Origin: a virus
Length of the DNA stretch: 64,000 nucleotides
IMG/VR virus record: IMGVR_UViG_3300048996_000163
Span: 32,001-96,000 of that record
Reading direction: 5' to 3' (one strand)
The notes under the pieces are model-generated. The model ran no database searches. It was not told the origin of the DNA and worked only from the letters and a program-made list of their open reading frames with translations. The first letter of the stretch is position 1, and each line of letters opens with the position of its first letter. Positions 3,528 through 45,370 of the stretch are shown piece after piece. Made by a program: the position numbers and the translations under genes.

Positions 3528-5804
3528 GTGCTCGCATTGGGCCGCTCCCGTACCCGTCGCCGCCCGATCGTCGCCGTCGAGTCAGCCTCCTCCGGTGACC
3601 TGACCCGCGCGATCAACAACCTGGAGCTGGCCGAACGCCGGCTTACCGACGGGCGCCTCGACCCGCTCCGCGAGTCGACGTCGGAGCTTGAGCAGCGCCT
3701 GTACGACCCGGGCTGGCGCCGCTTCACCGTCGAGGTGGAGCAGGAGTTCACCGACGACGGCCGCCGGCAGATGCGGTCCGTGTGCCGCCTCATGTCGATC
3801 GTCAACCCGCTGCTGGTCAGAGGGGTCGGTCTCCGCTCGGCGTACATCCACTCCGGTGGCGTCCAGCGCACGGCCCGCGCCAACGGTAAAGACGACGCCA
3901 ACGAGCAGGACGTCCAGGCTGTCGTCGCCGCGTTCCTGACCGACGAGGGCAACGCCCGCTCCTTCACGAGCCCAGCCGCCCGCGACCGGCTGGAGCATTC
4001 CCTCGCCACCGACGGCGAACTCTTCGTCGCGTTGATCACCCGCCCGTTGACCGGCGAGGTCCAGACCCGCGTCATCCTCGCCGACGAAATCGCGGACATC
4101 ATCTGCAACCCCGAGGACCGCACCGAACACTGGTACTACAAGCGCTGCTGGACGGAACGGCAGTACGCCAAGGACGGCACCCCGACCGACGTGCCGCAGG
4201 AGATGCTGTACCCCGCTGTCGACTACCGTCCGGCCCGCCGCTTCCGCCAGTTCGCCGGCATGCCGGTCGCGTGGGACAAGCCGGTCCTGCACATTGCCGT
4301 GAACCGCCCCGAGCACTGGTTGCACGGCATTCCCGACGTGTACAGCGCGATCAACTGGGCCAGGGCCTACAAGACGTTCCTCGAACAGTGGGCGACCGTC
4401 ATGGCGGCCCTGTCGAAGTACGCGTGGAGAACCACGGCCGCCGGTTCGAAGCAGGCGAAACAGATCCGCTCCGCCGTCACGGCGGCGAACCCGTACCGTC
4501 CCGAGACGGCGGGACCCGGCGACCTTGGCCAGATGGTCGTCACTGCCGCCGACCAGACCCTCGAGGCGATCCCGAAGTCCGGCGCGACAATCGACGCCGA
4601 GTCCGGCCGGCCCCTGGCGATGATGGCCGCCGCCGCACTCGGCATCCCGGTGACGATGCTCCTCAGCGACCCGGGCCAGACCGGTGCCCGCGCGGTCGCG
4701 GAGACCCTGGATCAGCCGACCGAGCTGACGATGAACCAGCGCCGTGAGGTGTGGACGGCCGCCGACGACCGGATCCTCCGCTACGTGATCGCTGAGGCGG
4801 TCCGAGCACCGAAGGGCCCGCTCAAGGGCAGGATCACGCGGGACCGCTTTCGTGACCGCGAGGTGGTTGAGCTCGACGGCGACACCGACCCGACGGTCGA
4901 CATCGTCTGGCCGGACCTGTCGGACACGACCGTCAAGGAGAAGATCGACGCGATCGTCTCCGCGGCCGGCACCGGTACGCTCCCGCCCGAGCTTGTCCTG
5001 CGACTGGTCCTCGCCGCGATCGGTGTTCGTAACGCTGACGCGATCATCGCGGAGATGGTCAAGGACGGTGTATTCCTGTGGCCGTCGACCGGCCCCGCGC
5101 CCGGCGCAACAACCGGTGTCATTCCATCCGACGGTACCGTCGACGGCCAAGGACTCCCGGCGGGCGCGGGCATGCCGGATCAGAACCCGGCCCAGCCTGG
5201 TCAGCTCGCCGCCGCCGCGGTCGAGCACGCGGCGTCCGGTGCCTGGTCCGCCCTCGACGCTGACGCTGCCTCGCTCGCCGCTGCCGCCCAGGCGGACGCC
5301 GTCCCTGCCGGCGACCTGCCTGCGTGGTGGGCGGACGCGGACGCTGTCGACGACGACTGGCGTGTGGATGCCGCGCTCGCTCGCGGCGCTGACATCGCGG
5401 AAGCGTACGGCTCGCAGCACGCCGGCGACGACGAGGATGCGTTGCGCCGCGGGTATGACATCCTCACGGCCGAGGCTCAGCTCACCGGCGGGCAGGCGCC
5501 GACCTTCGAAGTGTTCGCCGCTGCTGCTCGTGCGGCCGGGGAGTACACGCCGACGGTCCAGATCGACAACCGGGTCGTCGCGACCGCGGTGCGTGTCGGG
5601 TCGTACGCGGCGACCGTCGGCGACCCGATCACCACCTGCCCGTACCAGGGTGCGGACCCCGGTCAGGCGGCGCTGCGCAGGGTGTGGCTGAGCGCTTACC
5701 TGCGCATCCGGCCCGCGGGCCCGGCCGTGGCACGTGACGCTGCGGCTTCTTCCGACGCCGAGTCTCCGGCCTCGACCGAGGATGCAGGTGACGGCCGTGG
5801 CTAA
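3528..5804 (+). CDS. Portal protein with long C-terminal extension
   Basis: Follows TerL; DGELF, GIPDVYSAINWARAYK and GIPVTMLLSDPG motifs; low-complexity tail ends in an Rmf/CrpP-like motif. Confidence 0.85.
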   Translation: MLALGRSRTRRRPIVAVESASSGDLTRAINNLELAERRLTDGRLDPLRESTSELEQRLYDPGWRRFTVEVEQEFTDDGRRQMRSVCRLMSIVNPLLVRGVGLRSAYIHSGGVQRTARANGKDDANEQDVQAVVAAFLTDEGNARSFTSPAARDRLEHSLATDGELFVALITRPLTGEVQTRVILADEIADIICNPEDRTEHWYYKRCWTERQYAKDGTPTDVPQEMLYPAVDYRPARRFRQFAGMPVAWDKPVLHIAVNRPEHWLHGIPDVYSAINWARAYKTFLEQWATVMAALSKYAWRTTAAGSKQAKQIRSAVTAANPYRPETAGPGDLGQMVVTAADQTLEAIPKSGATIDAESGRPLAMMAAAALGIPVTMLLSDPGQTGARAVAETLDQPTELTMNQRREVWTAADDRILRYVIAEAVRAPKGPLKGRITRDRFRDREVVELDGDTDPTVDIVWPDLSDTTVKEKIDAIVSAAGTGTLPPELVLRLVLAAIGVRNADAIIAEMVKDGVFLWPSTGPAPGATTGVIPSDGTVDGQGLPAGAGMPDQNPAQPGQLAAAAVEHAASGAWSALDADAASLAAAAQADAVPAGDLPAWWADADAVDDDWRVDAALARGADIAEAYGSQHAGDDEDALRRGYDILTAEAQLTGGQAPTFEVFAAAARAAGEYTPTVQIDNRVVATAVRVGSYAATVGDPITTCPYQGADPGQAALRRVWLSAYLRIRPAGPAVARDAAASSDAESPASTEDAGDGRG

Positions 5805-7515
5805 GGGGCACCCGTCGTCGTGCGCGACCGCCGAACTCGGGTCCGTCTGTCACTGCGAATGTGCCGGTGTCCGGCACTCGTGGCTCGGCGGCAGCGTCCC
5901 GTCTGCGGTGAAAGCCCCGCAGGGTGGCTTGCCTGCTGTGAACGGCGCGAACGTCGCGCAGACGGCCGGCGGCCTGGGTGGGCTGAGCGGGGAGAAGCCT
6001 CCGCCGCCAGTGTCTCCGACCGAACCGGCTACGCCGGCCGAGCCCGCGGCAGAGCCGCAGCAGGCGACACCGTCAGACGAAGCCCCTGCGGACGGGCCGA
6101 GCGTCGATACGCTCACCGGCGACGCCGTGCGCAACGCCGCCCCGCTCAGCTGGGTCCGGAACCAAGCCGACCTCACCGACGAGCAGCACCTGGGTCTCGA
6201 CGAGTACCGGCGCGCCGGTTACCGGCCGATCAACCACCTGCTCCGCGGCGGTGACGCCGACGGCCTGGCCGATTTCTACGTCGACGAGGCCGAGGTTCAG
6301 GGCTGGATCGGCGGCATCGACTCGGCGATGGAATCGTCCCCGCTGGCCGACGACGTCATCGTCTGGCGCGGTCACCGCAATGGGCCGCGAATGTTCGGCG
6401 ACAGCTTCAGCGGCGACCTGACCGGCATCGAATGGCGCGAGGCCGCGTTCGTGTCAACGTCGTCGGACGAGACGGTCGCGACCGGGTTCGCCCGCGAGCA
6501 CTCGACGACCAGCACGCCCGCCGGTTCAGTGGTGATGCGGCTCGTCACCCCAGCAGGTACGGGCGCGGTTGAACTGTCCGACGGGTCGTACGAGTCGGAG
6601 ATGCTCCTGGATCGCGGCCACCGCTACCGGGTGGTCGCGGACCGTGGTGTCGACGGCGACGGTGTCCGCCAACTGGATGTGGAGGTCCTCCCGCGTGACG
6701 ACCGCACGGAAGACACCGAAGAAGACGGCGCGGGCGGGTCCGACGTCGGCGAGGGAGCGTCAGGCGGGGAACTACCGGCCGCCGATCCTGGCCCCGCCGA
6801 AGGGCGGCCCGATCCCGACGTGGGTGGAGGCGACTCCGCCGAAGGCCTGACCGGTCCGGCCGCCGATGACCGCCCCTACCACGAACGTGTCGACGAAGCC
6901 CTCACCGAGGTCGAGGCCCGCACGTCGCCGCCGCTGTCCCGGATGCGTGAAGGCGCCCGCGCGCTGACCGACGACGAGCGGGAACTCGTCGAGGAGTACA
7001 TGGGCGAGGGCTTCCTACCGATCAACCATGTGCTCCGCGGCGGTGACCCCTCGGCACTGGAACGCTGGGACCGGCGCGACCGCGGCTACGACCTGACCCC
7101 AGAGGTCATCGACAGCTGGACCGGCGCCCTCGACGCGTTGATGGCGGAATCCCACCTGCCGCAGCCGATCATCACGTGGCGTGGAATGCGCAACGGCGAC
7201 ACCCTGTTCGGCGACTCATTCGGCGATGATCTGACCGGCGCCGAATGGTCCGACCCGGCGTACTCGTCGACGTCGACGGACGAAGATGAAGCTGTCGCGT
7301 TCGCGCAGGACCAGATCGGCAACGCCGTGCCGGGGTCGACGGTGATGCACATCCTGGTGCCGTCCGGCACGGGTGCGCTGGAGCTGTCCGACCACAACTA
7401 CGAGTCCGAGGTGCTGCTGGAGCGGGGCCTGCGGTTCCGGGTCGTGACCGACTGGGGCATCAACGACAACGGCGTCCGCGTCCTCGACGTGGAGGTGATC
7501 CCCGATGGCAGTTGA
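5797..7515 (+). CDS. Tandem VIP2-like ADP-ribosyltransferase (two R-S-ExE domains)
   Basis: Domain 1 YRPINHLLRG/VWRG/FVSTS/YESEMLL; domain 2 FLPINHVLRG/TWRG/YSSTS/YESEVLL; GTG start overlaps portal end. Confidence 0.88.
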   Translation: MAKGHPSSCATAELGSVCHCECAGVRHSWLGGSVPSAVKAPQGGLPAVNGANVAQTAGGLGGLSGEKPPPPVSPTEPATPAEPAAEPQQATPSDEAPADGPSVDTLTGDAVRNAAPLSWVRNQADLTDEQHLGLDEYRRAGYRPINHLLRGGDADGLADFYVDEAEVQGWIGGIDSAMESSPLADDVIVWRGHRNGPRMFGDSFSGDLTGIEWREAAFVSTSSDETVATGFAREHSTTSTPAGSVVMRLVTPAGTGAVELSDGSYESEMLLDRGHRYRVVADRGVDGDGVRQLDVEVLPRDDRTEDTEEDGAGGSDVGEGASGGELPAADPGPAEGRPDPDVGGGDSAEGLTGPAADDRPYHERVDEALTEVEARTSPPLSRMREGARALTDDERELVEEYMGEGFLPINHVLRGGDPSALERWDRRDRGYDLTPEVIDSWTGALDALMAESHLPQPIITWRGMRNGDTLFGDSFGDDLTGAEWSDPAYSSTSTDEDEAVAFAQDQIGNAVPGSTVMHILVPSGTGALELSDHNYESEVLLERGLRFRVVTDWGINDNGVRVLDVEVIPDGS

Positions 7516-19170: not shown

Positions 19171-20310
19171 ATGACGAGCTCGGCGCTGACGTTCGCTGTC
19201 GGCGGGTCGGTCACAGCGGTCAAGGCCGCGAAGGTCGGTACGCAACTCCCGTTCGCCGTGGGCGGCACCGCGGCCACCGGGCAAGGCACCGTCCGGGGCG
19301 TCACCAGCACGCTGGCGTTCGCGGTCACCATCGCAATCCCGGGCGTCGCGTACAACGCGGTCGGCTGGGACGAGGAGTACGCGCCCACCGAACTCCAGTG
19401 GCTGCGGACCTGCGCCAAAGCCCACTGGGACCTGACCGACGACGACCTCGGCATCAAGGGCAACGAGCTCCACGACTACGGGCGGCACCGTTCGCACCGG
19501 TGGCTGCTCGGCCATGGTCGCGCCGACGACTACTCGATCCAGGACCCCCGCGACCGCTCCCCGGACCGCGACGTCCTCGCCGCCCTCGACATCTCCCTAC
19601 CCCCGGACCTGCTCGCCGAGGCGTGCGCGGCACTGCTCGCCGCGTCGCACGCAAGGACGCTCCCGCCGCAGATCGCCGAGTGGTTCGGGACCGTCGACGG
19701 GGTTCACGTTGTCGGCTGGGACGTCATCGACAACGCCCCCGCCACCTCCGACACGTCGCACCTCTTCCACCTGCACCTCGGCTTCTTCCGCGCTTTCACC
19801 AACCTCGACCACGCGGCAGTTCTAAGGCTGATCCTGGGGGCTCGCGTGGACGACGGGACGTTCAACATCGCGCTCGGCCGGTGGATGTACCTCATCGGTC
19901 TGGCAGCCGCCGGGACCGGCGCACTGACGGTGGCGCTGCTGCGTTCGGCGCAGATCGACGGGCTGCTCCGCGAACACGACACGCTCGCCGACGTCCTCGC
20001 TGGCAGTGGCACGGTCGAGGCGGACTTCACCGGCTACGCGCGCAAGACCGTCACTAGCGGCATCGCGGCAACCGTCGTCGACGCCTCCAACTGGGTCAAC
20101 GCCACCATCCCCGCGCAGACGTGGAACCCGGCCGGTGGCGCGGTCAACAACACGCTCGTGAAGCTGCTCGCCTGCTGGAGCCCGACGGTCGGCGCCCCCG
20201 ACTCGCAGGTCATCCCGCTGACATTCCACCGGTTCACGACCACCACCGACGGTGTCACGCCGCTGGTGTGGCAGCCGCCGACGGCAGGGTTCGGACGGGC
20301 GGCCGGCTGA
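19171..20310 (+). CDS. Structural protein fused to an endolysin-like Zn-peptidase domain
   Basis: H..GRH, DYS..DPRD, AALDI and HLFHLHLGFFR motifs parallel those of 31812-32792; C-terminal EADFTGYARKT structural domain. Confidence 0.6.
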   Translation: MTSSALTFAVGGSVTAVKAAKVGTQLPFAVGGTAATGQGTVRGVTSTLAFAVTIAIPGVAYNAVGWDEEYAPTELQWLRTCAKAHWDLTDDDLGIKGNELHDYGRHRSHRWLLGHGRADDYSIQDPRDRSPDRDVLAALDISLPPDLLAEACAALLAASHARTLPPQIAEWFGTVDGVHVVGWDVIDNAPATSDTSHLFHLHLGFFRAFTNLDHAAVLRLILGARVDDGTFNIALGRWMYLIGLAAAGTGALTVALLRSAQIDGLLREHDTLADVLAGSGTVEADFTGYARKTVTSGIAATVVDASNWVNATIPAQTWNPAGGAVNNTLVKLLACWSPTVGAPDSQVIPLTFHRFTTTTDGVTPLVWQPPTAGFGRAAG

Positions 20311-20462
20311 TGCCGACGGTCACGACCCTGCAGGCCGTGGAGATGTCCCGGCCCATACCGGCGCCCGCCACGGTTCCTGTGCCCGCCGACCACATTCGCC
20401 CCGTGCTGTCGACCCCGTGGCATCGCACTGGCGTCATCCGCACCCGCCACTGAGGAGGTGCC

Positions 20463-37479: not shown

Positions 37480-37674
37480 ATGGATGAGCGCCAAACGCTG
37501 CAATTCGTGAACGAAATCCACGAATTCGTGACCCGAGACGCCGACCGGCGCGACAAAGACGCCGAAGACCGGCACAAGGAACTCCTCGCCGCCATCGACG
37601 ACACCCGCAAGGCGATCGTCAGCGCCATCGAAACCGGGTTCCGGCAACTCGCCGACGTGCTCCGCAGCCGCTGA
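37480..37674 (+). CDS. Small coiled-coil protein
   Basis: Fills the gap antisense to the transfer operon; plausible codon usage. Confidence 0.45.
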   Translation: MDERQTLQFVNEIHEFVTRDADRRDKDAEDRHKELLAAIDDTRKAIVSAIETGFRQLADVLRSR

Positions 37675-37676
37675 CG

Positions 37677-40007
37677 TCACGCGTTCACCTGCTCGGCCAA
37701 GTCCAGCGCAGCGATGACGCCGGCCTCGGTGAGGCTGTGTCGTCGGTCTGCTGACACCACGAAGTCCCGGTCGCGGAGCTGCTTCAACGCCCCCCGCACT
37801 GTCGCCGTCGAATACGACATGCCGGCGTCCGTCAAGGCACCGTCGAGCTCATCCATCGTCAACGCCCGCCGCCCGTCCGTCTCAGCCCTGGCGAGGACCA
37901 GTAGCACCGCATCGACGGACCGTTGCGGCGTGACCGACTCCGCAGACTTCGCCTCCGGCGCCCACGACTCCCCCGCCGCCGCAGCCTTCACCCACTGCGC
38001 GTACGCGGGACCGAACGTGTCGAGGGTGACCTGCGGCAGGACGGCCGGGTAGCCGATCGGCTGGTCGTTGCTGTCACGCACCCAGTCGTAGTAGTCCGGT
38101 TCCCACTCGGTGCGTGCGAGCATCGCCTTCGGCTGCAGCCCACTGAGGATGTACGCCATGCCGGGGATCTGCGGGATGCTGCGCGGGTCGGCAGGGAGCC
38201 GCCCGTTGAACGCGGTGGGGCCGGACAGGCTGTTCGCGGTCCGGCCGACCCATACGAGCCCACCGGTGAGAACATCCCGCAACGCCATGCTGCCACCCAG
38301 GTCCGTCAGCAGCGGCGTGTGCGTGGCGAGTCTCAGCTGCCCGCCGCACTTCCGCCACATGCGACCGGCTTTCGTGACGAGCGTCGCGAACGCTCGGTTC
38401 GACAGGTAGTCGTGCGCCTCGTCGATCGTCAGCGACAGGATCGGGCCGTCGATGAGCGGGTTCCACCACTTGCGGCCCTTCCGCTTCCGGCCGCGCTCGT
38501 CGACGTACTCGACGCGGGCGAGGTAGCGGTTGCGGCGCAACATCTCCTCGGTGAGGCACAGCACGAGCAGGATCGCCTCTTCGAGGGATGTCGCGACGGG
38601 CGCGGCGAGGTCGTCGAGGAACGGCGCGAACGACTGGCCCTGCTGGGGGTCGATGAGGAAGTTCGCGACGAGACCGTGCGCCCTGCCCTGTTCGTCGCGG
38701 TAGTGCGCCCACCGGTCGATCGTGAACAGCGCATTGAGGAACTCCGATTTTCCTGAGCCGGTCGTGCCGAACGCAGCCACGTGGGGGACGCCCCAGCCGG
38801 GCCGGTAGATCTCGTAGAACGCCTGCTCGCCGTCGGCGTACATGGCGATCGGCGCCCGGCCGGTCTTGACGTCGATGGAGTCAGGGCCGGACCAGCGGAC
38901 CGTGTCCTTGATCGGGCTGGACCGCTGCGCGAGGATCGTCGACTGGTTCTCGTCGTCCGGGTCGGGCAGGACGGTGATCATCGACTTTTTCATGCTGTAC
39001 GCCGATGCGATCTTCCCGACGGCGGCAGCGAACTGGTCCGACTCGTACGCGCCGATCGGGCCGACGACCGTCGCACCCCAGCCACCGACCACCCGATGCC
39101 AGTCCTCGAGGTGAGTCCCGGCGAGCTTCCCGTTCGCGGCGGCCCTGACCGACGTCCCGTCCGGATGAACACCGATCACCTGGTCTTTGCGGACGGCGAG
39201 GACGGTCCTCCAGATCCGCTCGACCTCGACCCGGCCCGGGTCCAGCGCGACAACCTCCTGTGGCTCCTCGACCTCGACCTCGACGTCGATGGCGGGCTGC
39301 GGCCGGTGCCGGCGGACACGCTCCGCCCGCCACCACGACGCTGCCGGGACCAGCCACGCCGCGACCAGTGCGGCGAACGCGACCCGGCCGGTCCACGTCG
39401 ACGGGTCCACGCCCAGGCCCGCGGCGGCCGCGAGTAGCGTCGCGACCGTCACGCCGGCGTAGCCGTACAGGCGCGCCGACCGGGCGATCGCAGCGCGGCG
39501 GCGCTTGTCACCGCCAGGGTCCGTGTCGTCGATGCGACCCTTTCGCGCCGCCTTCGACGTCAGGTATTTCGCGGCGGCCGTCTTCGCCAGCCATCCGGCG
39601 GCGGGCACCGCCAGCGCCAGCGGCAGGAACGGCACCTCGGCCGCATCGACCGCGACACACACGCCACCGGCAGCGACCAGCGCCCACACAGGCCGCAGCG
39701 GGCGCTCCGCCGCGATCCGAAGGTCACGCCACGGCAGCAGCGGAGGCCGCTTCACGTCCATCGGCACCATGCGTTTCCCGCACCGCTCGCACGCTGGCGG
39801 GGTCTTCATCGTGGACCAGCCCGCCGGGCCGTGCTGACGGCACCGGTACTGGACACCGACGATCGTCCCCGACTGGTCGACAGGCACCTCCGCCGCAGCG
39901 CGACGCAGGACACCGGACGTGTCGTAGTAGGTGCGGGACTTGCGTTGTGCACCCAGCGGCCCACCTGGCACGGCGGGTCCGCCGGGCGGCGACACCATCG
40001 GATGCAT
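37677..40007 (-). CDS. TraB-like FtsK/SpoIIIE DNA translocase
   Basis: N-terminal TM segments, Walker A GTTGSGKS, LIDPQ, Walker B LTIDEAH, RK.G..L.LATH, C-terminal wHTH-like domain. Confidence 0.85.
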   Translation of the reverse strand: MHPMVSPPGGPAVPGGPLGAQRKSRTYYDTSGVLRRAAAEVPVDQSGTIVGVQYRCRQHGPAGWSTMKTPPACERCGKRMVPMDVKRPPLLPWRDLRIAAERPLRPVWALVAAGGVCVAVDAAEVPFLPLALAVPAAGWLAKTAAAKYLTSKAARKGRIDDTDPGGDKRRRAAIARSARLYGYAGVTVATLLAAAAGLGVDPSTWTGRVAFAALVAAWLVPAASWWRAERVRRHRPQPAIDVEVEVEEPQEVVALDPGRVEVERIWRTVLAVRKDQVIGVHPDGTSVRAAANGKLAGTHLEDWHRVVGGWGATVVGPIGAYESDQFAAAVGKIASAYSMKKSMITVLPDPDDENQSTILAQRSSPIKDTVRWSGPDSIDVKTGRAPIAMYADGEQAFYEIYRPGWGVPHVAAFGTTGSGKSEFLNALFTIDRWAHYRDEQGRAHGLVANFLIDPQQGQSFAPFLDDLAAPVATSLEEAILLVLCLTEEMLRRNRYLARVEYVDERGRKRKGRKWWNPLIDGPILSLTIDEAHDYLSNRAFATLVTKAGRMWRKCGGQLRLATHTPLLTDLGGSMALRDVLTGGLVWVGRTANSLSGPTAFNGRLPADPRSIPQIPGMAYILSGLQPKAMLARTEWEPDYYDWVRDSNDQPIGYPAVLPQVTLDTFGPAYAQWVKAAAAGESWAPEAKSAESVTPQRSVDAVLLVLARAETDGRRALTMDELDGALTDAGMSYSTATVRGALKQLRDRDFVVSADRRHSLTEAGVIAALDLAEQVNA

Positions 40008-40075
40008 CGGGTTCCCCTCGGTCGTGGCTGGCTGTCACCGCGCAGGCCGGCACATGTCCGGCCCGACGGAAACGG

Positions 40076-41176
40076 TCAGTTGCCACCGAGACGGGCCGGC
40101 TGGCGTCCCGCGGCGGCGACGGCCGCCTGCTGTTCGGCGACGGCGATGGTGGCGCCGAGTTGCGCGTTGACGCCGCCGTCTGCGGCGAGGAACCGGGAGT
40201 CTCCGCCCAGGTCACCGGCGACGGTTGTCGCGGCGTCGCCGTACTTCGCGACGATCCCGGCAAGCGCCGCCTCCGTCGCCTGCAGCGCCACCTCGGCGGC
40301 GTCACGGCGCTCCTTCGCCATCACTTCCATCGCCTCCAGCTGGTCGAAGTAGGTGTCGACAGCACCGGCCGGCATCGCGTCGGCGACGGTCCCCGTGTTG
40401 CCGAGGGTGTCCGCGTCGAGGTTCAGGACGGCGAGGTGCTCATGCGTGGAGGCGGCAGCGGCGCTGCTGGACCGGTACGAGTCCTGCATGTCACCGATGT
40501 GGCCCTTCGCCTCGCCGAGGGCACGTTCCGCGGCGGTGCATGCGTCGAGGTGCAGCTGCTGCTCCCTGAGGAGCGCCTCGAGTTCGGCGACGGTGGTTTC
40601 GTAGTTGACGGCTTCACCGGTCGGTGTGGTCATGGTTCCTCCTGCGGTTGGCGCTGGCGTTTCCTGTTTCCTGGCGGGCCGCCACGCGTACCCATCCCAT
40701 TCCTCGTCTCCGTCGTCGGTGTTGCGGCGGGTGCCGGGTTCGAGGTCCGCGTACCGGGTCGCGTCGGGGATCTCGTCTGCGGCCGGCTCCGGTTCTGGCC
40801 GCGGTTTCCGCTCGACGGGTTCGACGAGCTTCCGGACGACCGGCGACGCGGCGACCTTCCGGGCTCCGTTGACGACGACGTCCTTCGCTGCGGCGAGCCG
40901 GTCCCGGAACCTGACCTTCTCCCCCGGGTTCGCGGCCTTCGCGTCGCGGGCGGCGATCAGGGCGTCGGCGCGGCGCGGCCAGTAGTCGTTCCACGCGTCC
41001 CGCAGAAAGTCCGTGAAGCCGTACCGGTCGACCTTCGCCGCGGCCGTGGCGCCGTGCTTGCGTTCCATGCGGGGCGACACGATGCCCTGCTTCGCCAGGT
41101 TGTTGTCGACGATCGCGTCGCTGACGGTGCGTTTCACCGCCCAGGTCAGGAGCATCACCGCGAGGAGGATCTCCAC
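40076..41176 (-). CDS. Transfer-region protein (N-terminal hydrophobic, C-terminal coiled coil)
   Basis: Long ORF in the operon upstream of TraB. Confidence 0.7.
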   Translation of the reverse strand: MEILLAVMLLTWAVKRTVSDAIVDNNLAKQGIVSPRMERKHGATAAAKVDRYGFTDFLRDAWNDYWPRRADALIAARDAKAANPGEKVRFRDRLAAAKDVVVNGARKVAASPVVRKLVEPVERKPRPEPEPAADEIPDATRYADLEPGTRRNTDDGDEEWDGYAWRPARKQETPAPTAGGTMTTPTGEAVNYETTVAELEALLREQQLHLDACTAAERALGEAKGHIGDMQDSYRSSSAAAASTHEHLAVLNLDADTLGNTGTVADAMPAGAVDTYFDQLEAMEVMAKERRDAAEVALQATEAALAGIVAKYGDAATTVAGDLGGDSRFLAADGGVNAQLGATIAVAEQQAAVAAAGRQPARLGGN

Positions 41177-41182
41177 GGCGGC

Positions 41183-41581
41183 CTACTTCGCCGTCTGCTG
41201 CTGCACCTGGTCGCCGGTCTTCGACACGCCGCCGCCGGCCTGGCTCAGCACGGTCGGCAGTGCCGCAAGGAACGCGACGAAGAAGACGGGGACGAGGAAG
41301 AACGCGAACAGGGCGGGCCGGTCGGCGCCCTTCTTCTTGCCTTTGACGTCGGCGATGATGACGCAGATGCCGACGAAGACGAGTACTCCGGCGATGAGCA
41401 GCACCTGCTTGGCGTAGCCGTTGAGCCACGTTCCGGTGCTTGTGTTGTAGGTCATGAATCCGCCGATGGCGGCCACGATGCAGGCGGTGCGGGTGAGACG
41501 GACCTTCTGGTGTACGTAGTAGGCGCCGGCGAATACGACGAAACCGCCGAGGGTGGACAGGAACGAGCTGATCACGTCCAT
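41183..41581 (-). CDS. Multi-TM membrane protein (Spd-like)
   Basis: MDVISSFLST start with AGGAGG RBS; about four hydrophobic segments. Confidence 0.7.
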   Translation of the reverse strand: MDVISSFLSTLGGFVVFAGAYYVHQKVRLTRTACIVAAIGGFMTYNTSTGTWLNGYAKQVLLIAGVLVFVGICVIIADVKGKKKGADRPALFAFFLVPVFFVAFLAALPTVLSQAGGGVSKTGDQVQQQTAK

Positions 41582-41591
41582 GGTCGGCCTC

Positions 41592-42038
41592 CTAGCCGAT
41601 AGTGAGCAGGTAGAGGGGGACGGCGAGAAGCACGGCGAGCGCGGCTCGCGCCGGATGACGGGCGATCCACAGCAGGACGGTGAGCGTCCCGACGACCGCG
41701 AGCGCGACCGCGGGGATGAGCAGCCCGACGCTGTGGTTGTAGAGGACCCAGCCGGCGTAGAGGGCGGCGTTGGAGCCGGGGACGGTGTCGCGGTCCGGCA
41801 TCCGCTCCGCCCACGCGGTGGAGAACGTCGGCAGCGAGGCGGGCATGAACCAGGCGTCGCGGAGGTCCTGCCACGTCTGCCGGCCCCACCCGGCGAAGGT
41901 GTTGACCAACACGGAGCGTGACCCGTACCCTCGCGCGCGCATGCGCGCATGCGGACGCGCCTTCTCCAGACGCACAGTGGGGGCTGCCGCAACGTCTGCC
42001 GCCGCGACACGGCCGCCGAAAGCGCTACTGATAGTCAC
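41592..42038 (-). CDS. Membrane protein (Spd-like)
   Basis: C-terminal TM pair with HPAR motif; GTG start overlaps upstream stop. Confidence 0.6.
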   Translation of the reverse strand: MTISSAFGGRVAAADVAAAPTVRLEKARPHARMRARGYGSRSVLVNTFAGWGRQTWQDLRDAWFMPASLPTFSTAWAERMPDRDTVPGSNAALYAGWVLYNHSVGLLIPAVALAVVGTLTVLLWIARHPARAALAVLLAVPLYLLTIG

Positions 42039-42298
42039 CGCTGCTCCTTCCAGTTCTGCTCGACGTCGAAGCGTTCGACCGTCATCGCGATCGCTGTGGC
42101 GAGGTCCCGGCGGGCCGTGTCGGTGATCCGCTTGCTCGCCGCGAGCGCCGCGTTGCAGGCGACCACGACGAGCTGATGGCCGCCTTTGCCGCCGTCGATC
42201 ACCTTCGTCGCGCGGACACGGACGAACTCGGCCCGGTTCTCCTGACGGCGCACGATCCGCGCCGCTTTGCGCTCCCCTGGAGTCCCCTTGCGCGCCAT
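42035..42298 (-). CDS. Small basic protein
   Basis: MARKGTPGERK start; coupled to neighbours. Confidence 0.55.
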   Translation of the reverse strand: MARKGTPGERKAARIVRRQENRAEFVRVRATKVIDGGKGGHQLVVVACNAALAASKRITDTARRDLATAIAMTVERFDVEQNWKEQR

Positions 42299-42486
42299 CA
42301 CGCCCCCTGACCTGCGGTGACGCGTTCGCACCAGCGGTCCAGGACGGCACGCAGCAGGATGTCGCCGAGCTCGGTGTCGGCCTGGTCGATCGCGTGGTCG
42401 CCTTCGCGGAAGCCGCGACGGCCCGCACCGATGAGGACGAGCGCGTGGGCGTCGACGAGCTGGGTGAGGTTCCGGAGCGTCTTCAC
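42298..42486 (-). CDS. Hypothetical protein
   Basis: Coupled on both sides. Confidence 0.5.
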   Translation of the reverse strand: MKTLRNLTQLVDAHALVLIGAGRRGFREGDHAIDQADTELGDILLRAVLDRWCERVTAGQGA

Positions 42487-42791
42487 GCGGCACCGCCCAG
42501 TTGGGCGTGGGCGGCCCGGTCATGGGCGGACGCGTAGGCGACGGACACGCCCAGGGCGCCCACGCCCAACACGACCCCGGCGACGCCCTCCGGCTGGCGG
42601 CCCGCCCAGTCGACGATGACCGCGGTGAGCCAGAAGCCCAGCGCGGTCCGGAACGCCCAGTGGGCGGCTTGGGCGTCGTTGGGCGGACTGGGCTGGGCGA
42701 GGTGGGCGCCCCTGTCGCGGAACGTGGGCCGGGTGGGCGTGGGCTTGGTGGGCTGGGCGCCCACAGTGGGCGTGCTGGGCTGGACGGTCAT
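42483..42791 (-). CDS. Two-TM membrane protein (Spd-like)
   Basis: TALGFWLTAVIV and GVVLGVGALGVSVAY segments; GGAGG RBS. Confidence 0.6.
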   Translation of the reverse strand: MTVQPSTPTVGAQPTKPTPTRPTFRDRGAHLAQPSPPNDAQAAHWAFRTALGFWLTAVIVDWAGRQPEGVAGVVLGVGALGVSVAYASAHDRAAHAQLGGAA

Positions 42792-43400
42792 GACGCCTCC
42801 TCGGTGGGCGTGGGCTGGGCGCCCTGGGCGGCGCGGATCTCGCCCAGTAGGCGGACCAGCTTCCCCGCTGGCTCCTTCGACGCCCAGCCCACGTAGCCGC
42901 TGGCCTGCATGTGCTTCATCGCCTTGTCCCGCCCGGGCGCTGGCGTGCCCTGCGGGAACTCCTTGTCCAGGTCGACGAGCCGGCGCACCTGCAGCTCCGG
43001 CAGTGCCGCAACCTGGGCGTCCAGATCTGGGCGACCGGCGTGCAGGGTGGGCGGCACGGTGGGCTGGGCGCCCTGGGTGGGCGTCTTGGGCTGGGCTGGG
43101 CTGGGCTTGGTGGGCGCCTTGGGCTGGGCGGGTGCAGCGGTGGGCGTGGGCTGGGCGGCGCCCAGGTGGGCGAGCGCCTCAGTGGGCGTGCCGCTGGGCG
43201 TGGGCTGGGCGGCCGGGGTGGGCGTGTCAGCCTGGGCGTCGCCCACCTCGCCCGCGTTGGGCGTGGGCTGACTGGGAGATCCGGGTGTGGGCGCCTCGAT
43301 CCGGGCGGGGGCGGGCTGGGCGCCCTGGGCGGGCGACTCGCCCACCACGGAGTAGACACGGACCGCGCCCACCTGGGCTGACCGGTCGCCCAAATGGGCG
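42494..43400. repeat. Dense TGGGC/GCCCA pentamer tract (candidate clt-like locus)
   Basis: About 65 copies by hand count in ~0.9 kb, both orientations, spanning two genes. Confidence 0.8.
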
Positions 43401-44269
43401 GGATCAAGCCGGACGGCGATCATGTCGGTCAGGCCGTCGTAGTCCGCACGGTCCTTCAAGCGGGCGGCGATCTCGTCGAGGTCGTACACGGCGACCGCGA
43501 TGTCCGCCGTCATCGGGTCGACCGCGGCGCGGATCTCCCGGTGCAGCACCTTCGAGATCGCCTTTGTGCGGATCTCGCGACGCTTCTCGGCGCGGGCTGC
43601 GGTCAGGGACGTGTAGAGCCCGAGCCGCTCGTCGGCCTTCGCCAGGTTCTTGGCGCGCAGGGTCAGCCACGGGTGCCGGATCCAGTGCCCGACCACCTCG
43701 TAGGCCGGGGTGGTCGGCGGCAGGTCACCGGTCGCCCGCAGTCGGTCCCGGCGCTGGTTCTCGGTGTGCATGACCCACACGAGGTAGCCGAGCGCGGACA
43801 TGCCGGCGAAGAACCCGGCGAGAAGCTTCACGTCGTGGGCCATCCAGTTGAACGCGACCGCCCACGCGGCGATCCCGGCGGACAGCAGGCGCGACGTGAA
43901 CGCCTTCTCCCCCAACCTGCGGCGCACGTCGGCGTCGTTGAGGACGACGATGCCGCCGAGCTCGAGCGCGCCGACGGCGGGGATGGCCCAGACCAGTGGG
44001 ATGCCGAGGGCTTCGACAGCACCGGACACCTGCCCGGCGAGGGCGACGCCGAGGACGACGACGTAGAACGCTTTACGGATGTGACCGGACCGGTGAACGG
44101 ACCGCTGCAGGTCGGCGTCGAGCTTTTCCTTGACGCCCTGCGGGTCGGTGGGCTTCGACGCAGCCTGCGGCTTGCTCCACGCGGCCAGGTTGATGGGGTG
44201 GATCGGCTGGTGTCCGTTCACGGGGAGGTCCCGGGTCGGCCGGTATACGGGGGTGGCGAGCGCGGTCAT
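42788..44269 (-). CDS. SpdB/DUF2637-like multi-TM protein with Pro/Gln/Thr-rich linker
   Basis: Four TM segments, coiled coil, AQPTP repeats, possible terminal HTH. Confidence 0.7.
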   Translation of the reverse strand: MTALATPVYRPTRDLPVNGHQPIHPINLAAWSKPQAASKPTDPQGVKEKLDADLQRSVHRSGHIRKAFYVVVLGVALAGQVSGAVEALGIPLVWAIPAVGALELGGIVVLNDADVRRRLGEKAFTSRLLSAGIAAWAVAFNWMAHDVKLLAGFFAGMSALGYLVWVMHTENQRRDRLRATGDLPPTTPAYEVVGHWIRHPWLTLRAKNLAKADERLGLYTSLTAARAEKRREIRTKAISKVLHREIRAAVDPMTADIAVAVYDLDEIAARLKDRADYDGLTDMIAVRLDPAHLGDRSAQVGAVRVYSVVGESPAQGAQPAPARIEAPTPGSPSQPTPNAGEVGDAQADTPTPAAQPTPSGTPTEALAHLGAAQPTPTAAPAQPKAPTKPSPAQPKTPTQGAQPTVPPTLHAGRPDLDAQVAALPELQVRRLVDLDKEFPQGTPAPGRDKAMKHMQASGYVGWASKEPAGKLVRLLGEIRAAQGAQPTPTEEAS

Positions 44270-44335
44270 CGGTGCCTCCTCTCTGGGTTTAGCCGGCCGC
44301 CGCCGACGGGGGGACGACGGCGGCCGGGGTCTGGG

Positions 44336-44518
44336 TTACCGGTGTCCGGTGACGATCGGGTCGATGTCTTGCGGGTGCAGCGGCAGGTGCCGGCAGTCCT
44401 GGAACCAGCTGCGGTGCGTCCAGCAGGTGAGCCGGTCGTCGCCGTGGAGTCCCTGGTATTCCTCGGCGAAGTCTTCGGCGGCGAGGGTTTCGAGGAGCAG
44501 GCGGTCGGTGGTGGTCAC
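44336..44518 (-). CDS. Small hypothetical protein
   Basis: CWTHRSW..DC..H motif; coupled. Confidence 0.5.
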   Translation of the reverse strand: MTTTDRLLLETLAAEDFAEEYQGLHGDDRLTCWTHRSWFQDCRHLPLHPQDIDPIVTGHR

Positions 44519-44697
44519 GCGTCACCGACGTCGGTGATGTGGATGTCGACGGTGCCGCCGCCGCGGGTGTGCTGGTACGTGAGTTGCCGGGTGGCGCTGG
44601 CCAGGTCGAGGCGTCGGTCGGCGCCGATGAGCCGGACGCTGCGGGTGGTGGTGACACCGTCGCGGGTGAGGTCGTAGGCGACGAGGTACACCTTCAC
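44515..44697 (-). CDS. Small hypothetical protein
   Basis: VKVYLVAYDL start after GGAGG; coupled. Confidence 0.5.
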   Translation of the reverse strand: MKVYLVAYDLTRDGVTTTRSVRLIGADRRLDLASATRQLTYQHTRGGGTVDIHITDVGDA

Positions 44698-45122
44698 GAC
44701 GCCTCCACCGGGGTGGAGACCCGGCCGCCGCCCTGTGACGACGACCGGGGGCTGTGGGCCGCCATGAGCCGGCGGGCGGTGGTGAGCGCGGCGATGACCT
44801 CGTCGAGGGCGGCGGCGTCGAGGTTCGCGCCGATCTGCTCTTCGGCGGTGAGGGCGCGCAGGTTGACGACGGTCCCGTCGGTGGTGTTTTGGAGCATGAC
44901 GGTGACCATGTCGGCGCGGCCGGGGGTCTGGACGCCGAGGCAGGCGAGCGCCGCGATGTGGGTGCGGTGCGGGCCGTCGATGGTGCACCAGCTCGGGCAG
45001 CGCGCTGCGAACGTGACGACCTGGGCGGGGATCTCGGGGAGCCGGGTCCGCAGGAGCGGGGCGGGCCCGCGCTGGCGGGTGCCGAAGTCGACGGTGATGA
45101 CGTCGGCGTAGGTGACGCTCAT
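44694..45122 (-). CDS. Hypothetical protein with CPSWC...H motif
   Basis: Motif common in actinomycete mobile elements. Confidence 0.6.
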   Translation of the reverse strand: MSVTYADVITVDFGTRQRGPAPLLRTRLPEIPAQVVTFAARCPSWCTIDGPHRTHIAALACLGVQTPGRADMVTVMLQNTTDGTVVNLRALTAEEQIGANLDAAALDEVIAALTTARRLMAAHSPRSSSQGGGRVSTPVEAS

Positions 45123-45370
45123 GACGCGCTCCTCGCGGTCCGGCCGGCCCGGGTGAGCTGGACGGTGAGGTGGTCGCGTTGCCCGATGCCGCTGGCGCGG
45201 TTGACAGCCCAGTCGGCGCCGACGACACCGGCGGTGAGGTGGATGACCTGGATCAGGTCCTGGTTCGCGGCGTCGAGAACTGCGGCGGCGCTGGTCGCCG
45301 CGAGAGCTTGGGCGAGGCTGCCGCCGTCGTAGGCGATGCCGAGGAGCTGGGTGAGGGCGACGGTGCTCAT
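45119..45370 (-). CDS. Hypothetical protein
   Basis: MSTVALTQ start; coupled. Confidence 0.5.
   Translation of the reverse strand: MSTVALTQLLGIAYDGGSLAQALAATSAAAVLDAANQDLIQVIHLTAGVVGADWAVNRASGIGQRDHLTVQLTRAGRTARSAS

Follow-up and report, generated by a model that had tools for sequence, protein, structure and literature searches.

In plasmids of Streptomyces, the clt loci bound by TraB/TraA consist, according to the cited sections of the literature, of 3-9 repeats of 5-9 bp within ~54-175 bp and are found next to tra or kor genes or at their ends, the repeat being 8 bp long in pSVH1, 7 bp in pWTY27 and 5 bp in pIJ101, with nine copies of a 9-bp form in pJV1 (PMC3583192, PMC4447253). SpdA2 of pIJ101 is described as binding palindromes within its own coding region; in the relevant part of that account the site, sps, is one 12-bp palindrome, present in 1-3 copies and conserved across plasmids, and the sites were removed by synonymous recoding (Thoma et al. 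2014, PMC4170104). RepAM of pMEA300 has 8-bp repeats in its own gene, as outlined in the corresponding passage of a 2008 review (PMC2440964), and SpdB2 of pSVH1 is characterized, in the portions cited here, as an oligomeric membrane protein that binds double-stranded DNA (dsDNA), forms pores and interacts with TraB, with homologues reported on some actinophages (PMC4447253). Here we describe, in a window of 64,000 nucleotides (the whole stretch of DNA that was analysed; bases 32001-96000 of the 132,717-bp virus record IMGVR_UViG_3300048996_000163, with a G+C content of 69.4%), an array of a short DNA word overprinted on two adjoining genes, A and B, of a predicted TraB-type transfer module. 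We propose that this array is a protein-docking site specific to the element that carries it. The features concerned, in coordinates of the window, are:

42495..43399, both orientations: array of 66 TGGGCK words, defined by k-mer counts and codon nulls
42788..44269, minus strand: gene A, 493 amino acids (aa), with hydrophobic segments at residues ~67-110 and ~149-167, a linker rich in Ala, Gln, Pro and Thr (AQPT) at ~291-418 and a helical C-terminal domain at ~419-480
42483..42791, minus strand: gene B, a small membrane protein of 102 aa with 24 word copies and a hydrophobic segment at residues 69-87

Within these 905 bp the plus strand holds 50 copies of TGGGC and 16 of GCCCA, both ends are sharp, and a single extra copy lies outside the array, at 42446. 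The whole window has 207 copies of the pentamer and its complement, 65 of which fall in the two 500-bp bins of 42501-43500 (30 and 35), against 0-4 in each of the other 126 bins and a background of about one per 500 bp. When the entire record is divided by kilobase, the tract accounts for 32 and 38 copies, the next highest kilobase has 6 and the median is 2; no second TGGGC cluster exists across the 132.7 kb. The original prediction had spoken of about 65 pentamers in both orientations that cross the gene boundary, enter DNA coding for a transmembrane segment, stop sharply at both ends and far exceed the low count expected, and the counts bear out each of these points. Genome-wide avoidance of TGGGC was considered separately and rejected, since 317 copies occur outside the tract where tetranucleotide frequencies predict 300, a ratio of 1.06. 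Base 6 of the word is G in 48 copies, T in 17 and C in one, which gives the hexamer TGGGCK, and no base is conserved in the flanks beyond it. The array runs from residue 291 to residue 489 of A, through the 4 bp shared by the two genes and on into B, including its hydrophobic segment, and the word is read on the coding strand as GCC-CAx, xxG-CCC-Axx, xTG-GGC and TGG-GCx, that is, in every frame that fits GC-rich codon use. A word-free gap of 122 bp (42892-43013) coincides with residues 419-460 of A, the helical core of the C-terminal domain; the structured part of A is thus spared by the array.

This locus resembles a clt in kind, having element-specific short words in direct and inverted copies near an FtsK-like tra gene of dsDNA transfer, with words that differ by element. 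The comparison with clt and its TraB recognition sequence (TRS) repeats drawn in the original prediction therefore stands for kind. It does not stand for scale: set against the clt figures in the cited sections (PMC3583192), 66 copies in 905 bp (and 20-99 copies in relatives) are of another order. Furthermore, the array is wholly coding, shapes the protein, lies 2.4-3.4 kb upstream of traB and is found on a tailed phage. With SpdA2, so far as the cited account goes, it shares the placement of specific sites for a spread-region protein inside that protein's own gene, which for A is a prediction; the differences are that the word is a hexamer present in dozens of copies and varying between elements, and that SpdA2 is a small soluble protein whose loss affects stability and not transfer, whereas A is a membrane protein. 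RepAM, as the review passage presents it, is likewise a protein of an actinomycete mobile element with repeated binding sites in its own gene, as predicted for A; however, RepAM is a replication initiator whose repeats form a hairpin origin with a nick site, whereas A, encoded in a transfer operon, is a membrane protein, and no hairpin origin was seen at this locus. No coding-sequence array of this size was found described in the main-text passages of the literature searched. What is new relative to clt, SpdA2/sps and RepAM is the scale, the overprinting on a linker whose composition the array dictates, the words private to each element, and the occurrence on large phages.

The enrichment was chosen at the level of DNA and not for the protein. 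When the protein is held fixed and synonymous codons are redrawn from the record's own usage in 5000 versions, residues 290-493 of A yield 12.2±2.7 copies (maximum 24) against 42 observed and gene B yields 8.4±2.0 (maximum 17) against 24 observed, whereas residues 1-289 of A yield 5.5 against 4 observed. With codon choice limited to shuffling each gene's own codons between identical amino acids, the counts are 21.5±2.5 for A 290-493 and 13.5±1.8 for B, again below the observed values. The choice of individual codons was compared with that in 14 control coding stretches, namely 13 large genes of the window and residues 1-289 of A. Alanine before a codon starting with CA is encoded by GCC in 22/22 tract cases, compared with 13/34 for the other alanines of the tract and 12/48 in the controls; proline before a codon starting with A is CCC in 27/27, compared with 6/16 and 13/91, and 26 of these 27 CCC codons are preceded by a codon ending in G; glycine after a codon ending in TG is GGC in 13/13, compared with 10/16 and 12/34. 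Altogether the tract uses 62 of its 62 synonymous opportunities for the word and the controls use 37 of 173.

Beyond synonymous choice, protein B itself has been bent to the DNA word. In an alignment of its family, the window's sequence has L-G, W-A and A-H where its relatives have F-A or F-G, R-T or R-L, and L-Y, and each of the window's pairs spells the word; these substitutions in a conserved membrane protein create it. The window's B also carries a 35-residue N-terminal extension rich in Gln, Pro and Thr, and its relatives are without such an extension. That amino-acid repeats might explain the enrichment, the escape left open by the original prediction, is contradicted by the codon nulls, by the complete use of synonymous opportunities and by the substitutions in B.

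The array shares its run of genes, all on the minus strand, with a gene for a TraB-like translocase. After B the order is a 62-aa open reading frame, an 87-aa basic protein, two small membrane proteins, a 366-aa protein and traB, of which the following were delimited:

42298..42486, minus strand: 62-aa open reading frame starting at the end of the array, with a conserved counterpart at the beginning of metagenome contig L139
42035..42298, minus strand: 87-aa basic protein of a family conserved across the modules
41183..41602, minus strand: 139-aa membrane protein, module family F5, with a weak, below-cutoff NCBIfam match to a mobilome membrane protein family
40076..41176, minus strand: 366-aa protein directly upstream of traB, of a family present in 16/18 module loci compared
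37677..40007, minus strand: TraB-like FtsK/SpoIIIE-family translocase of 776 aa (Pfam FtsK_SpoIIIE)
37680-37940, minus strand: C-terminal winged helix of TraB, residues 690-776, with the recognition helix TATVRGALKQLRD

The ATPase domain of the TraB-like protein matches Pfam PF01580 (E 3.2e-7, 30.5 bits, cutoff 24), and the protein scores 31.2 bits against the NCBIfam plasmid_TraB equivalog, the cutoff of which is 800; it is a distant relative and not an equivalog. Its last 87 residues were modelled by AlphaFold2 from 9 sequences with a predicted local distance difference test score (pLDDT) of 89.3 in a layout of three helices and a hairpin, for which Foldseek retrieves MarR, PadR and F-93 winged helices with probability 1.00 and template-modelling (TM) scores of 0.6-0.75, the E-values being only 1.3e-3 and above. 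The FtsK_SpoIIIE domain, the plasmid_TraB match and the winged helix uphold the TraB transfer setting of the original prediction. Genes A and B have no match in Pfam, NCBIfam or PHROGs. A is called SpdB-like by architecture and position only: like SpdB2, as portrayed in the sections cited above, it is a membrane protein of a spread operon adjoining traB, but no family model matched it. Relatives of B are found in loci L111, L113 and L114, and B has no homology to the gene after A in L002.

Comparable arrays recur, with other words, in related modules. We compared 17 TraB-linked loci: L111-L123, all 13 from genomes, and L140, L143, L147 and L156, from metagenome or viral contigs in which sufficient DNA lies upstream. 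As in the window, an A-like gene (300-560 aa) is followed by small genes, then by a gene of 320-580 aa and traB. In 12 of the 17, one hexamer is strongly clustered in the 3' half of the A-like gene, at a distance of 2-3.5 kb upstream of traB, so that different short words occupy the same place in homologous loci, a point for which the original prediction had called for a check:

CGGACA: L111 (34 copies, where the remainder of the locus predicts 0.4), L140 and L143
CGGTCG: L113
CGGTAA: L112
CGGCAC: L114
CGGAGC: L116 and L121
CGGAGG: L147
TGGCGG: L120
GGCGGA: L123
TGGGCG: L122 (99 pentamer copies in 1172 bp)

Arrays in these relatives comprise 20-99 copies over 0.5-1.2 kb, and in most words a variable triplet comes after CGG or TGG. 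Of 13 arrays tested by codon resampling, 12 have more copies in the C-terminal half of the gene than any of the 1000 versions, and most N-terminal halves fit the null; the exception is L113, where the N-terminal half only equals the null maximum and the array extends further upstream. Copies occur in both orientations in every array, which argues for recognition of dsDNA and not of RNA. The array-bearing linkers are variously rich in Pro and Thr, in Glu, Ala and Arg, in Asp and Ala, or in Gly and His or Arg and Thr; such wholly unlike make-up is expected if the DNA word sets the composition of the protein.

These observations bear on the simplest account of the array, namely that it has no function and that a low-complexity linker rich in Pro and Thr grew by slippage and local duplication, the word count being a by-product. 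Local duplications do exist: the longest dispersed direct repeats of the tract are 26-42 nt at 67-87% identity, Tandem Repeats Finder reports short arrays (the best of period 33, 2.2 copies, score 103), and the peptide AQPTPT recurs in the A linker. However, those tandem arrays are local and low-scoring, and simple tandem repetition does not describe the array as a whole: distinct 17-mers hold 63 of the 66 copies, and the word is carried in both orientations, in several frames and by at least eight dipeptide encodings. It also enters a conserved membrane protein by substitution and takes up every synonymous opportunity while the same codons elsewhere in the tract are unbiased; the phenomenon returns with other words in 12 further loci whose linkers are of quite different make-up; and A genes with 44-52% identity still have the word in common. 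A functionless origin is strongly disfavoured on these grounds.

The arrays go with the TraB modules and not with the N-terminal domain of A as such. That domain is found in 146 of 401 Micromonosporaceae genomes, and among 62 loci scanned around its genes, large arrays in the C-terminal part occur only in the window and in L076/L007, where the word is GGCCA (25 copies, codon resampling giving 8.7±2.4); L002, L095 and L043 have weaker ones. Among 60 other loci with an A N-terminus of the window's type, a TraB/FtsK match within 8 kb was found only in L002 and an array of at least 20 copies only in L076. In many chromosomal copies the N-terminal domain is joined to another conserved C-terminal domain, there is no array and no TraB nearby, and a response-regulator receiver gene follows, a different and possibly domesticated context; in the chromosomal homologues L017 and L034 the N-terminal domain is ~80% identical. 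Matches to the window's TraB were obtained in 14 of the 401 genomes (a tally that counts the unpublished G215, which lies outside the loci compared), and it has 103 protein relatives, many on contigs of 90-146 kb. As a single-protein query TraB returned no relative in viral or metagenome contigs; an alignment of 42 TraB sequences found 17 metagenome and 2 viral loci. In one of these contigs, L139, TraB is 81% identical to the window's and the contig starts just after the position of the array.

Wider searches yielded little beyond this set. Neither megablast of 37600-45200 nor tblastn of A matched the plasmid collection; tblastn of the L002 TraB against the same collection listed 980 FtsK-like records, pSVH1 not among them. 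An exact 17-nt stretch of the tract occurs in 14 viral contigs, one match each, and none of these contigs has a comparable array, the maximum being 16 copies per 600 bp (L110). A genus-level genome search matched 4 of 31 genomes and added no new genome. An order-level search gave distant, ATPase-only TraB matches in 5/401 genomes at 6 loci, with arrays in L161 and perhaps L162 and none in the other 4. The distant module of L161 has, at ~2751-3350 of contig G441:C40, a CGGGAC/CCGGGAC array (14 in 600 bp against 7 elsewhere), one base off what we take to be the pSVH1 repeat on the other strand.

The A genes of L140, L143, L111 and the window are mosaics, in which N-terminal membrane domains of the window's type are combined with three different C-terminal domains and the junction lies at the array; the A gene of L140 has a window-type N-terminus (50% identical) with the C-terminus and the word of L111. 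The joining of mosaic A genes at the array (as in L140) would also suit a DNA-level role without transfer proteins, such as a partition centromere, replication iterons or a recombination-prone joint at which gene halves are exchanged. The word's presence in both orientations and the repeats inside coding sequence of RepAM-type origins, as the cited review passage has them (PMC2440964), would be compatible with such a role. Yet the module families shared by the loci include no partition or replication gene, the arrays accompany TraB modules and not the A N-terminal domain as such, and a host recombination signal would not vary between elements, so that we regard roles of this sort as improbable.

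Which protein would read the word was approached through co-variation, using the four words that recur in more than one locus (11 loci in all, WIN being the window's own):

TGGGCG, WIN and L122: A tails of the same type (GRDK.M.HM...GY.GW.SKEPA), A 52% identical overall; TraB 28% identical in the ATPase part only, with helices TATVRGALKQL and GTRNGALTDL
CGGAGC, L116, L121 and L136: A tails all REV[NH]R[IL]TGAGF, the A proteins of L116 and L121 being 44% identical; TraB of L116 and L121 from different clades, none identified in L136
CGGTAA, L112, L135 and L138: A tails all NAVR[TE]L[TL]GVG[LF]; TraB of three unlike types
CGGACA, L111, L140 and L143: A tails of L111 and L140 homologous to the window's type, that of L143 an unrelated classical helix-turn-helix (HTH); TraB helix in all [TV]RT[VI]RDAL

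The shared word follows the C-terminal domain of A in 10 of the 11 loci, L143 being the exception, and follows the TraB recognition helix in one of the four groups. Co-variation of the word with the TraB winged helix, which the original prediction had raised, thus holds for CGGACA and fails for TGGGCG, CGGAGC and CGGTAA; in these three groups the arrays differ from a clt in this respect too. Because shared words track the A tail so much more closely, the SpdB-like protein is favoured over TraB as the probable reader. The best-conserved part of the A tail is the segment that same-word loci have in common, and this, along with the retention of the word between A genes only 44-52% identical, makes the pairing of word and tail look like the result of selection and not of mere descent. 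The 87-aa basic protein (42035..42298) was also tried as a reader and rejected, its family not following the word.

TraB remains the obvious competitor. On that account the array is a clt proper, in which the C-terminal winged helix of TraB reads the hexamers and TraB hexamers load and pump the DNA, A being uninvolved in recognition. An FtsK/SpoIIIE ATPase with a confidently modelled winged helix is what it calls for, in syntenic modules the spacing between an array and the traB downstream of it is constant, and L111, L140 and L143 share both CGGACA and the [TV]RT[VI]RDAL helix despite the different A tail of L143. Within that TraB clade, moreover, loci with different residue pairs at positions 2 and 6 of the helix also have different words (8 loci). 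The CGG core common to most words is as expected of homologous readers, and the TRS of pSVH1 contains CCGG on its other strand. TraB proteins are also documented, in the cited sections, to recognise direct repeats in clt (PMC4447253, PMC3583192). Against this, TraB clades and helices are unlike in three of the four same-word groups; the helices of L111 and L113 differ only by Asp to Glu, yet the words are CGGACA and CGGTCG; and those of L120 and L121 are near-identical, yet the words are TGGCGG and CGGAGC. The constant CGG or TGG fits homologous readers that make one constant contact, but it does not discriminate between the candidates, because the A tails form a broad helical family just as the TraB winged helices do. 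We consider recognition by TraB rather unlikely, though the most credible of the alternatives.

Several observations weigh against A as the reader, or against so general a view of the arrays. The C-terminal domain of A is encoded within a few hundred bases of the array, and their co-inheritance is in part linkage. L143 combines the CGGACA word and a TraB helix like those of L111 and L140 with an unrelated C-terminal HTH in A. The AlphaFold2 model of the window's A tail is weak (4 sequences, mean pLDDT 62.3), and Foldseek gave no significant match to it in PDB (best E 3.1). In the modelled helix-loop-helix a loop of 11 residues stands in place of the turn of an HTH, so that an HTH is not established for tails of this type; matches to HTH families were obtained in the L007 tail only, below their cutoffs (HTH_11, E 1e-4). 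Pfam at E-values up to 5 returned nothing for the window's tail, and a region search of protein databases with A residues 405-480 retrieved only the protein itself. SpdB2 of pSVH1 is reported, in the section consulted for its DNA binding, to bind dsDNA non-specifically, and no word array is described for it there (PMC4447253), which sets it apart from the specific reader proposed here. Five of the 17 TraB-linked loci (L115, L117, L118, L119 and L156) have a weak array or none. Finally, the array words were picked from the same data in which they were later tested, which inflates the single z-scores, the N-terminal halves serving as internal control.

On balance, we favour the reading of the array as an element-specific protein-docking array with the tail of the SpdB-like protein A as its predicted reader, and put its probability at about 0.5. 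Copies of TGGGCK would have been placed where the protein tolerates change, that is, in the A linker, in the added N-terminal tail of B and at permissive positions of the B membrane helix. The small helical C-terminal domain of A would be the reader, many copies of it docking on the array, while A, anchored in the membrane by its N-terminal domain, would reach the DNA through its long linker. Docked A could then hold the DNA of the element at the membrane beside the TraB pore/Spd complex, ready for hand-over in transfer or in spreading through the mycelium. Sites inside linker-coding DNA would cost protein function little, and sites inside the reader's own gene would keep site and reader together when modules recombine, as A genes that are in fact mosaics joined at the array (L140) would suggest. 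More tentatively, and here doubt outweighs confidence, the private hexamer, a constant CGG or TGG with a variable triplet matched to a few C-terminal residues of A, may be a specificity code that chooses the DNA for the TraB pore, the word dictating the make-up of 100-200 residues and large tailed phages spreading as naked DNA between hyphal compartments.

As to the element itself, its genes indicate a tailed phage with a plasmid-type TraB/Spd transfer module, an assignment that follows from a portal protein (PHROG E 1.6e-103), capsid/protease genes and a tape measure protein upstream in the window. L122 and L113 have, ~30 kb away, a portal gene 69% identical to the window's and are therefore related prophages; a portal like the window's was not found in three other genomes checked. 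At 1153 aa, the TraB relative of L113 (7977-11438, G285:C1; a Dactylosporangium roseum prophage) aligns with the window's TraB in two blocks, covering residues 3-433 and 417-761 of the latter; its source (P0007, P0050) names a DOD-type homing endonuclease and P0050 carries PF05204, which suggests an intein in the translocase gene. In the record itself, ~33 bases at the end repeat a stretch near the start, which indicates a circular assembly or terminal redundancy. A 593-aa protein beside the portal gene (5734-7515, plus strand) has PHROG matches both to ADP-ribosyltransferase families (Alt-like; E 3.9e-16 and 1.2e-10) and to a head maturation protease, and may be a head-packaged ADP-ribosyltransferase. 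A tRNA-Cys gene lies inside the virion-gene region (20274-20363, minus strand).

TraB-mediated dsDNA transfer in mycelial actinomycetes is understood for only a few small plasmids. With the arrays comes a cis site, large and specific to the element, in which synonymous recoding would leave the protein unchanged, together with two candidate readers that could be purified as small domains, and the loci with different words constitute a natural specificity table to decode and swap. In these arrays, moreover, a DNA signal takes precedence over protein sequence with unusual clarity, which matters wherever low-complexity linkers are read as features of the protein. The arrays mark a family of ~100-145-kb phages and prophages of Micromonosporaceae with conjugation-type machinery, and, if it is true that the spread protein reads the array, the Spd proteins would gain a specific role in the choice of DNA.

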